Shown here one piece after another: positions 17,632 to 17,703 of a stretch of DNA of 64,000 bases (position 1 is its first letter; every line of letters begins with the position of its first letter). The notes under the pieces are model-generated. The model did no database searches and was not told the DNA's origin. It worked only from the letters and a program-made list of their open reading frames with translations. Where the stretch lies: the IMG/VR virus record IMGVR_UViG_3300047287_000420, positions 1 through 64,000 of that record, one strand, 5' to 3'. The translations under genes were made by a program, and so were the position numbers. The DNA is from a virus.

Positions 17632-17703
17632 TCGCGAGGGACGGATTTGAACCGCCCATTTCTGAGCTGTCTGCTCAGCGTTCTACCCCTTGAACTACTC
17701 ACG
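17632..17703 (-). tRNA. Atypical tRNA-like gene, nominal anticodon GAC (Val)
   Basis: D arm GTTC-AAGGGGTA-GAAC, anticodon arm CTGAG-CAGACAG-CTCAG, T loop TTCAAAT. 6-bp acceptor plus 6-bp T stem, and A at position 33. Confidence 0.7.

Follow-up and report, generated by a model that had tools for sequence, protein, structure and literature searches.

In this study, we have examined a 64,000-nucleotide stretch of viral DNA (the window), which is the first 64 kb of the 84,285 bases of IMG/VR record IMGVR_UViG_3300047287_000420, a record rated 100% complete, and in it a 72-nucleotide tRNA-like gene at positions 17632-17703 of the minus strand. Our investigations indicate that it is a real, selected RNA gene, derived from a tRNA and restricted to phages. 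Its cloverleaf splits the 12 base pairs of the acceptor and T stems six and six (6/6), and not seven and five (7/5), and its anticodon arm recurs on other RNAs; we class it as a phage RNA of tRNA origin whose stem split is new and whose arm is shared and apparently non-decoding. Its parts are the following:

17632-17703, minus strand: tRNA-like gene, 72 nucleotides, 6/6 cloverleaf (from Rfam, fold and homologues)
17698-17703 with 17633-17638, minus strand: acceptor stem, 6 base pairs
17696-17697, minus strand: linker UA
17692-17695 and 17680-17683, minus strand: D stem, 4 base pairs
17684-17691, minus strand: D loop
17679, minus strand: G26
17674-17678 and 17662-17666, minus strand: anticodon stem, 5 base pairs
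17667-17673, minus strand: anticodon loop C32-A33-G34-A35-C36-A37-G38 (A33 at 17672, position 34 at 17671, position 36 at 17669)
17658-17661, minus strand: variable loop, 4 nucleotides
17652-17657 and 17639-17644, minus strand: T stem, 6 base pairs
17645-17651, minus strand: T loop UUCAAAU, 7 nucleotides
17632, minus strand: discriminator A

This sequence and its segmentation are exactly those of the initial annotation, which had proposed that the 7/5 register fails, whereas a 6/6 register pairs fully and keeps the 12-base-pair helix. The fold agrees with this proposal. The minimum free energy structure is the 6/6 cloverleaf (-28.9 kcal/mol, z = -2.69, with 3 of 200 shuffles folding as well), and the C32-G38 pair that had been suggested to close the anticodon loop to five nucleotides is present in it. 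A33, the discriminator A, a TAGCAT hexamer 7 nucleotides upstream and the CTA after the gene, which also follows the window's tRNA-Leu, had all been read correctly; no CCA is encoded. The bases that would correspond to U8, A14, G18-G19, U54-U55-C56 and A58 are all present, and invariant in our alignment A3. The Rfam tRNA model (RF00005) matches the gene end to end (17632-17703, minus strand) at 35.9 bits against a gathering score of 29 bits, with a deletion within the 5' acceptor strand, and no Rfam family except tRNA matches it. The two ordinary tRNAs of the window, whose anticodon loops are of the usual CU-NNN-AA type, score well above it (60.5 and 52.8 bits). Scoring with ARAGORN, as had been recommended, does return a tRNA-Val(gac), spanning 17631-17705, but the program has to shift the acceptor register by two bases and to tolerate two mismatches, a U.U and an A.C.

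Homologues that keep the 6/6 layout exist. Exact and degenerate pattern scans, the second of which left the 5' acceptor strand and all seven positions of the anticodon loop free, gave 8 further IMG/VR contigs and 18 metagenome contigs (1 truncated). The resulting set has 29 full-length rows (the window and 28 others) and 16 distinct sequences; some contigs are represented by two rows, and the collections may overlap. The 5' acceptor strand has the same six bases in 29 of 29 rows. In a MAFFT alignment of the 16 distinct homologues, the 6/6 structure holds standard pairs in 336 of 336 cells, against 63.4% of acceptor cells for the shifted 7/5 register of ARAGORN, which was ruled out on this count. 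A 7-base-pair acceptor stem using the base before C1 was also rejected, as this base is a G or a U opposite the discriminator A and the flank is unconserved; sequence conservation begins at C1 and ends after the discriminator. Two anticodon-stem pairs and two T-stem pairs are changed on both sides among the 16, and the acceptor stem and outer T-stem pair, near-invariant within the window's family, are backed there by constancy only. The A15:U48-type pair that had been described stands in part: it is A-U in 6 of the 16 and G-C in 3, but A.C in 7. The fear that close relatives would carry a normal 7/5 tRNA-Val, from which this copy would differ by a private indel or an assembly error, is answered by the 28 further full-length copies, all of them 6/6.

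A wider scan, in which the framework of D arm and loop was fixed, retrieved a second 6/6 subfamily (L126, L193, L197 and L247-L250, plus L246 in a metagenome-assembled genome). Its members share the linker, D stem and anticodon arm of the window's gene, but have an acceptor stem, T stem, D loop and T loop of their own. They lie in T7-like cyanophage contigs directly after psbA; in L126, the gene starts 8 nucleotides past the psbA stop and precedes a capsid-like gene. Folded alone, the RNA of this subfamily is 6/6. Our model R1 aligns it at 58.6-63 bits, with no mispair in L126 and L197 and one broken D-stem pair in L193. It is not called a tRNA by Rfam or ARAGORN, and its D loop and T loop are unusual. 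In an 18-sequence MAFFT alignment of both subfamilies, 99.7% of cells are paired and 8 pairs are changed on both sides (3 in the acceptor stem, 3 in the T stem and 2 in the anticodon stem); none of 500 shuffles reached the observed values, and controls with a slid register fall to 43-58% paired. The covariation that the initial annotation had asked to be sought is thus there, and its argument that intact stems speak against decay is borne out by homologues that keep 6/6 through compensatory changes. These alignments show stems under selection and a fold that is maintained by purifying selection rather than decaying. The predicted 6/6 fold is well supported, with the caveat that the outer T-stem pair and the two innermost acceptor pairs are invariant.

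The anticodon loop behaves very differently from that of a tRNA with a fixed identity. It reads C-A-R-A-Y-A-G (R, purine; Y, pyrimidine) in 16 of 16 distinct sequences, although the search had left all seven positions free. C32, A33, A35, A37 and G38 are invariant, whereas columns 34 and 36 vary nearly more than any others, and the triplets are GAC in 7, AAC in 4, GAU in 4 and AAU in 1. L010 and L024 differ at position 36 alone and L021 and L025 at 34 and 36 alone; the phage of L005, with a terminase 100% identical to that of the window's phage, has AAU where the window has GAC. Positions 34 and 36 therefore flip repeatedly by transitions, which is not usual for an orthologous decoding tRNA. 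Free drift does not explain the change either, as the bases seen are limited to R at 34 and to Y at 36. The triplet varies in the second subfamily too (CAU in L126, GAU in L248). The identity of tRNA-Val that had been assigned to the gene is consequently not retained, as near-identical phages differ at 34 and 36, some having a Val-type and others an Ile-type anticodon. In addition, bacterial synthesis of N6-threonylcarbamoyladenosine (t6A) is described in the cited passages of PMC13276492 as strictly requiring 36-UAA-38, and since G38 replaces A38 here, this rule is broken in the Ile-type loops.

The same arm is found well beyond these cloverleaves. We searched IMG/VR with the 17-nucleotide arm of the family's larger group, leaving 34 and 36 free (15 fixed bases), and matched at least 119 contigs, of which 80 were fetched (L118-L197). 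This search fixed A35 and the stem sequence, and undersamples both the breadth of the family and the rules of the loop. With context classes assigned by simple rules and by eye, 57 of the 80 loci fall in seven recurrent structured contexts; L189, which our script had left under 'other', was added to these 57 by eye. The arm is a bare hairpin in 26 loci, with no acceptor stem, directly following the 3' terminus of an ordinary tRNA (Thr, Ser, Asn, Leu, Gly, Met or Arg); the basal stems of these hairpins covary by eye. It sits on 7/5-type cloverleaves with a tiny D loop in 15 loci, in a longer unknown RNA in 8, in two other folds in 5 (one fold matches a reduced element of the cultured cyanophage S-EIVl) and on the second 6/6 subfamily in 3. 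No Rfam family covers these recurrent contexts. The triplets of the 57 loci are GAU in 35, CAU in 13, AAU in 6, GAC in 2 and AAC in 1, all of the form N-A-Y. A pattern with 15 fixed bases should give some matches by chance, and thirteen loci outside the contexts look chance-like, as does a 10-member family that is apparently coding; 12 unclassified, chance-like matches carry mostly different triplets, namely TAG (4), TAA (2), GAC (2) and CAA, GAA, TAC and TAT (1 each). U.G pairs at the top of the predicted stem show constraint on the RNA of this strand. The window itself has a covarying stem variant, with a 5-base-pair stem, a C-A-N-A-Y-A-G loop, a G26-like G before and an A after, and its group B relatives carry the exact 17-nucleotide arm of the other scaffolds. 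The arm, with its A33 and N-A-Y triplet, is thus present on at least five other scaffolds in cyanophages, and we propose to group its carriers, the window's gene included, as cyanophage A33 anticodon-arm RNAs.

The distribution of the arm is that of a phage element. Elements near the arm loci, namely psbA, the wcaG RNA and glutamine riboswitches, are cyanophage contexts. In the 185,579 species genomes of genome_contigs, the arm pattern has 8 matches, all in contigs of metagenome-assembled genomes (L239-L246), 6 of them in contexts known from viral contigs; the tRNA pattern has none. The arm is therefore phage-restricted and almost absent from cellular genomes. Together, the second 6/6 subfamily and the presence of the arm on RNAs that are not tRNA-shaped go beyond the initial annotation and move the weight from amino-acid delivery to the arm. 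In one arm locus, L169, the order of genes is tRNA-Ile(UAU), tRNA-Met, the arm hairpin and a normal tRNA-Ile(GAU); the tRNA-Ile(UAU) is 89 nucleotides long, has a long extra arm with a CAGAU-type loop and lies about 176-88 nucleotides upstream of the hairpin.

By BLAST, the hairpin form is present, unannotated, in the isolated Synechococcus phages S-SZBM1, DSL-LC02 and DSL-LC03. In S-SZBM1 it lies about 200 nucleotides upstream of an abiF RNA motif, in a single unannotated gap between tRNA-Pro and tRNA-Ala. Three abiF motifs are of note:

OL473597.1, about 31410-31690 (L251, 450-730): noncoding island of S-SZBM1, made of the hairpin, about 190 nucleotides of sequence and the abiF motif
L168, 1594-1630: abiF RNA motif RF03085, 55.3 bits, 4 nucleotides before an arm-bearing cloverleaf
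L189, 2483-2519: abiF RNA motif RF03085, 49.9 bits, 21 nucleotides before the arm

The 190 nucleotides or so of the S-SZBM1 island are a conserved unknown sequence that also follows the hairpins of L140 and L176, and the abiF motif there lies 4 nucleotides before tRNA-Ala. A divergent abiF-like copy, uncalled by Rfam, seems to precede several other class-1 elements.

Based on these results, our preferred reading is that the gene encodes a non-decoding tRNA mimic that presents its arm to a host factor, perhaps an anticodon-directed defence nuclease; we hold it tentatively, at somewhat less than an even chance. In this model, the RNA would probably be transcribed from its own -10 box and would be trimmed by RNase P and RNase Z, which would need only a tRNA-like acceptor/T domain. 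The odd anticodon arm would then be offered to a host protein that handles the anticodon arms of Ile-, Val- or Met-type tRNAs. The likeliest partner would be an anticodon-loop nuclease of a defence or toxin-antitoxin system, which would be occupied without the RNA being consumed, and the variation at 34 and 36 would follow the specificity of the host factor. The design would be a non-decoding one: A33 replaces the uridine of the U-turn, C32-G38 can close the loop to five bases and G38 replaces A38. These features look like those of a recognisable arm that is unfit for decoding or for cleavage beside a uridine. Since the arm is kept nearly letter for letter on scaffolds unable to accept an amino acid, the arm itself would be the working part. 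The initial annotation had offered a mimic, a decoy or a nuclease-resistant variant; this is still the best class of explanation.

Why a toxin or a nuclease? According to a recent preprint, abiF-motif RNA neutralises the HEPN RNase toxin AbiF by direct binding (bioRxiv 10.1101/2025.04.15.648962), and Cas13a, which is related to AbiF, is described as cutting tRNA anticodon loops. The neighbourhood of abiF motifs, together with these precedents and those of phage tRNAs, leads us to prefer a role as a decoy or as an inhibitor, directed at a host factor whose site of action is the anticodon loop; this role is suggested by anatomy and neighbourhood. A more specific and doubtful form of this proposal would be a cyanophage small-RNA family in which one "dead" arm cassette, on at least five scaffolds that range from the bare hairpins of tRNA arrays to what would be the first natural 6/6 cloverleaf, provides unconsumed substrate mimics that disarm AbiF-like HEPN or VapC-like toxins, with 34 and 36 tracking the tRNA specificity of the toxin as in an arms race.

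Several observations weigh against the mimic. The whole tRNA body is kept (U8, A14, the D-loop GG, a UUCRA-type T loop, the discriminator A and the 12-base-pair helix), and a carrier of a hairpin would not obviously need it. With R34 and Y36, all variants of the triplet are sense anticodons, for GUY or AUY, which is what a decoding tRNA would be expected to show. A33 alone does not exclude decoding, since mistranslating tRNAs that have A33, and even A34, are reported to occur naturally in bacteria (tRNAProX, in the cited part of PMC11415595). For the fold itself, three pairs, namely the outermost one of the T stem (G-C) and the innermost two of the acceptor stem, are invariant, and offer constancy but no covariation. 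The abiF link is one of neighbourhood only: RF03085 has no match in the window between 17400 and 17900, even at E values up to 10, and the motif precedes an ordinary tRNA-Gly in phage S-CREM1, so that it may be a plain resident of tRNA arrays. Finally, no conserved protein gene accompanies the element, and the gene downstream differs between relatives.

Some of these points are those of a different explanation, which we consider unlikely but which is the most serious rival: a working elongator tRNA, for Val (GAC/AAC) or Ile (GAU/AAU), made resistant to anticodon nucleases by its loop and shifted stems. With few or no loop uridines and no U33, it would keep GUY or AUY codons translated during an attack, in the manner of the T5 tRNA-Lys against PARIS. 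The cloverleaf is complete, with canonical tertiary nucleotides, a discriminator A and a 12-base-pair acceptor/T helix, the length that is read by RNase P, the CCA-adding enzyme and EF-Tu. The anticodons are exclusively sense, R-A-Y, and the gene sits among two normal phage tRNAs with a similar -10 spacing. The work of Schulman and co-workers reportedly established the anticodon as the dominant identity element for the valyl- and isoleucyl-tRNA synthetases (ValRS, IleRS), such that a change between C36 and U36 can switch identity; one body could then serve both. TRNAs with A33 and A34 that decode are on record (PMC11415595, in part), as are phage tRNAs that evade nucleases through changes in the anticodon loop (PMC10264068 and PMC13728456, in the passages cited). 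However, the arm is also carried by hairpins and folds to which no amino acid could be attached, amino-acid identity would flip between phages with identical terminases, and the Ile versions, having G38, violate the U36-A37-A38 rule for t6A. C32-G38 favours a five-nucleotide loop, a single resistant tRNA could not rescue a general attack on tRNAs, and the sister subfamily has an odd D loop and T loop and is uncalled by Rfam and ARAGORN.

It is improbable, in our opinion, that the RNA is charged or bound by a class Ia synthetase (IleRS, ValRS or the methionyl enzyme, MetRS) through its N-A-Y loop without decoding, in order to titrate or redirect the enzyme or to use an amino acid outside the ribosome. 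Each loop is indeed of the Ile, Val or Met type and has A35, a base that the pattern of the wide search had imposed, and the 89-nucleotide tRNA-Ile(UAU) of L169 carries an extra arm with a CAGAU-type loop. Nevertheless, the bare hairpins follow tRNAs of many identities, a misfit for a cis-acting handle, the element has no linked transferase gene, and the proposal is pure conjecture.

We give a low probability, too, to a tRNA-shaped processing signal, or "punctuation", by which RNase P and RNase Z would release a neighbouring small RNA or mRNA. It is the flanks of the gene that speak for it, and they hold the following elements:

17711-17716, minus strand: TAGCAT, a -10-like hexamer, 7 nucleotides upstream of the 5' end of the tRNA-like gene
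17704-17732, minus strand: conserved upstream hairpin, with an outer CCCG/CGGG stem and an inner 4-base-pair stem, read from the flanks
17625-17630, minus strand: TAGAAT, before the downstream element
17559-17618, minus strand: conserved downstream element of about 60 nucleotides, with a 5' hairpin, a purine-rich strand, a terminator and a U run
17568-17583, minus strand: terminator hairpin, whose stem covaries

The upstream hairpin lies between a small upstream gene and the tRNA-like gene, and its inner stem compensates among relatives, again as read from the flanks. The downstream element, small-RNA-like and with its own terminator, adjoins on the other side; it is a candidate small RNA, or else would form the 3' trailer of the transcript of the tRNA-like gene. 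Moreover, in cyanophage tRNA arrays, tRNAs have abiF motifs and arm hairpins as their direct neighbours. On the other hand, a processing handle could do without a conserved anticodon arm, and no part is shared as widely as this arm. Three relatives (L007, L018 and L013) retain the tRNA-like gene with the downstream element missing. In one group of relatives, a promoter-like site (TTGACA-N16-TAGACT) lies between the end of the tRNA and the downstream element, which apparently has its own promoter there and may therefore be an independent small RNA.

At the far end of the scale, readings of the gene as a tRNA pseudogene in decay, as an assembly error or as a phage attachment site are very improbable and contradicted by the data: the Rfam score is low (35.9 bits) and the cultured relative S-EIVl has degenerate tRNA-like pieces, but 28 further full-length copies, independently assembled, have no broken pair and show compensatory changes. 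An attachment site or a host-derived tRNA was ruled out, as no matching tRNA is present in cellular genomes (0 in genome_contigs).

The comparison with known systems helps to place the RNA that we read as a mimic. Like a canonical tRNA-Val or tRNA-Ile (RF00005), it has a cloverleaf with U8, A14, the D-loop GG, a UUCRA T loop, a purine at 37, a discriminator A, a 12-base-pair helix and no encoded CCA. Unlike them, it is 6/6 and not 7/5, with a 4-nucleotide variable loop, A33, a Watson-Crick C32-G38 and G38, and its anticodon is unfixed among orthologues, otherwise-identical bodies having different anticodons. Allo-tRNAs and tRNA-Sec have acceptor/T splits of 8/4, 9/3, 8/5 and 9/4 (Mukai et al. 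2017, PMC5389517; PMC7609411); in the passages of these papers, they are also natural, are in some cases found in phages and keep an acceptor/T helix with a moved junction, and some allo-tRNAs are suspected of being non-translational. Their acceptor stem is longer and their T stem shorter, whereas the window's gene goes in the opposite direction, with 12 base pairs split 6/6; they have a long variable arm and Ser or Sec features, whereas its variable loop has 4 nucleotides. A 6-base-pair acceptor stem with a 6-base-pair T stem is absent from the text of PMC5389517 and PMC7609411, supplements aside. In our literature search, neither a 6/6 tRNA nor this anticodon arm was the subject of any paper returned, although the supplements of PMC5389517 and PMC10264068 (file 1c) could bear on novelty, and the sole match listed for "6-bp acceptor stem" concerned mitochondrial tRNAs of mites.

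Phage tRNAs that evade nucleases offer a second comparison. These tRNAs reportedly keep U33. In the cited passages, the T5 tRNA-Lys facing AriB of PARIS (PMC13728456) and the mycobacteriophage tRNAs facing VapC (PMC10264068) also have changes in the anticodon stem-loop; they are otherwise canonical with a fixed anticodon, whereas here the arm exists without a tRNA body too. The tRNAProX gene shares a natural A33, an A34 and an odd 15-48 pair with the window's family, but is chromosomal and of Pro identity, and the cited passages of PMC11415595 mention neither an altered stem split nor a phage origin and state that the role of A33 is unexplored. The abiF-motif RNA RCd22 is, as our proposed mimic would be, a small RNA with a defined structure that silences an RNase toxin by binding it, and it occurs in the arm-bearing noncoding islands of cyanophages; it differs in having no similarity of sequence or fold, and no abiF motif stands beside the window's gene. 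Pseudo-ToxI of phage phiTE is reportedly an RNA mimic that silences an RNase toxin. TRNA-derived folds outside decoding, often in phage tRNA clusters, include the YrlA/Y RNAs of bacteria and phages, mascRNA and RNAs C and D of T4, which mimic the acceptor, T and D parts and replace the anticodon arm. Here, in contrast with these modules, it is the anticodon arm that is conserved.

If the fold is right, a natural tRNA-shaped 6/6 RNA extends the known tolerance of the tRNA frame (7/5, 8/4, 9/3, 8/5 and 9/4) in the opposite direction. This matters for tRNA gene finders, which mis-register the gene or miss its relatives, and for tRNA engineering. An arm common to many cyanophage RNAs also provides a testable candidate role for the "extra" RNAs of phage tRNA clusters, and possibly an RNA-based counter-defence in a globally important phage-host system.

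The phage itself encodes, within the window, a family A DNA polymerase, a D5-type primase-helicase and a large terminase. The terminase is 53% identical to that of S-EIVl, a freshwater cyanophage of Synechococcus that is the nearest cultured relative by this protein, other named phages being far lower; the DNA polymerase is only 29% identical to those of Pseudanabaena phages. In IMG/VR, the terminase has 333 matches, the best 80 at 91-100% identity, and the DNA runs that contain the region are freshwater, estuary and drinking-water metagenomes. From these matches and habitats, we place the element in a widespread, uncultured, S-EIV1-like cyanophage lineage, of which the phage is a member. Named phages give no close match to the 3-kb region or to the tRNA-like gene alone. 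The gene is confined to part of this lineage: in five records with 91-93% terminase identity (1 at least 90% complete), neither the Rfam tRNA model nor model R1 finds a copy, and it is therefore not the relic of a universal tRNA. The three tRNA-type genes of the window are tRNA-Leu(UAA), tRNA-Met(CAU) and the 6/6 gene, and tRNA-Leu is at most the tRNA content of those five more distant relatives. Its coordinates in the window are:

10778-10860, minus strand: tRNA-Leu(UAA), the sole tRNA found in 2 of the 5 relatives that lack the 6/6 gene (L110 and L111)

The tRNA lost in cyanophage-resistant Synechococcus is said to be this same Leu(UAA). Loss of a host tRNA has been tied to cyanophage resistance in Synechococcus, according to the cited part of PMC11726456.

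In S-EIVl (KJ410740.1), neither Rfam nor ARAGORN finds a tRNA. Model R1 matches two places weakly, 16380-16456 with 20.5 bits and 40723-40789 with 15.3 bits. The second of these carries a CAUAUAG loop, with a 15-nucleotide upstream motif common to four loci of the window's family, and its flanking proteins have no match in the window; homology of this element to the window's family is likely but unproven. S-EIVl has three tRNA-like pieces, at 16380-16456, 16496-16568 and 40723-40789, whose forms are a 7/5 fold with a stunted anticodon arm (GACAA loop), a canonical T arm and a long hairpin with the CAUAUAG arm. The first and the last are unannotated, and a hypothetical coding sequence on the opposite strand overlaps 16496-16568.

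Around the window's gene, a simple sigma-70 scan calls no promoter at TAGCAT; the ordinary tRNAs have TATAGT 6 nucleotides (tRNA-Leu) and 9 nucleotides (tRNA-Met) before their 5' ends. One group of relatives has an extra 47-nucleotide insert upstream, with its own hairpin. The purine-rich single strand of the downstream element comes in two flavours. Beyond it, the downstream gene (16654-17511 of the window, minus strand; L003-L029) has four unrelated N-termini behind a conserved TATAAT promoter-like site and leader, a pattern that looks like cassette swapping of a protein gene. The 285-residue downstream open reading frame has no Pfam or PHROG family, nor do those of 187 and 179 residues, and the small upstream one matches only a PHROG of unknown function. 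As for sequencing runs, the metatranscriptome X18 holds a tenth of the sampled words, and its contigs cover 18784-19716, around tRNA-Met only; X19 and X20 are probably DNA. Finally, in the DNA run X3, the summed contig depth is about 300-320 at 17474-17741, which spans the tRNA-like gene and the downstream element, with flanks at 34-71 on the low-coordinate side and 137-232 beyond the other side; this excess fits many co-occurring strains with a common module.

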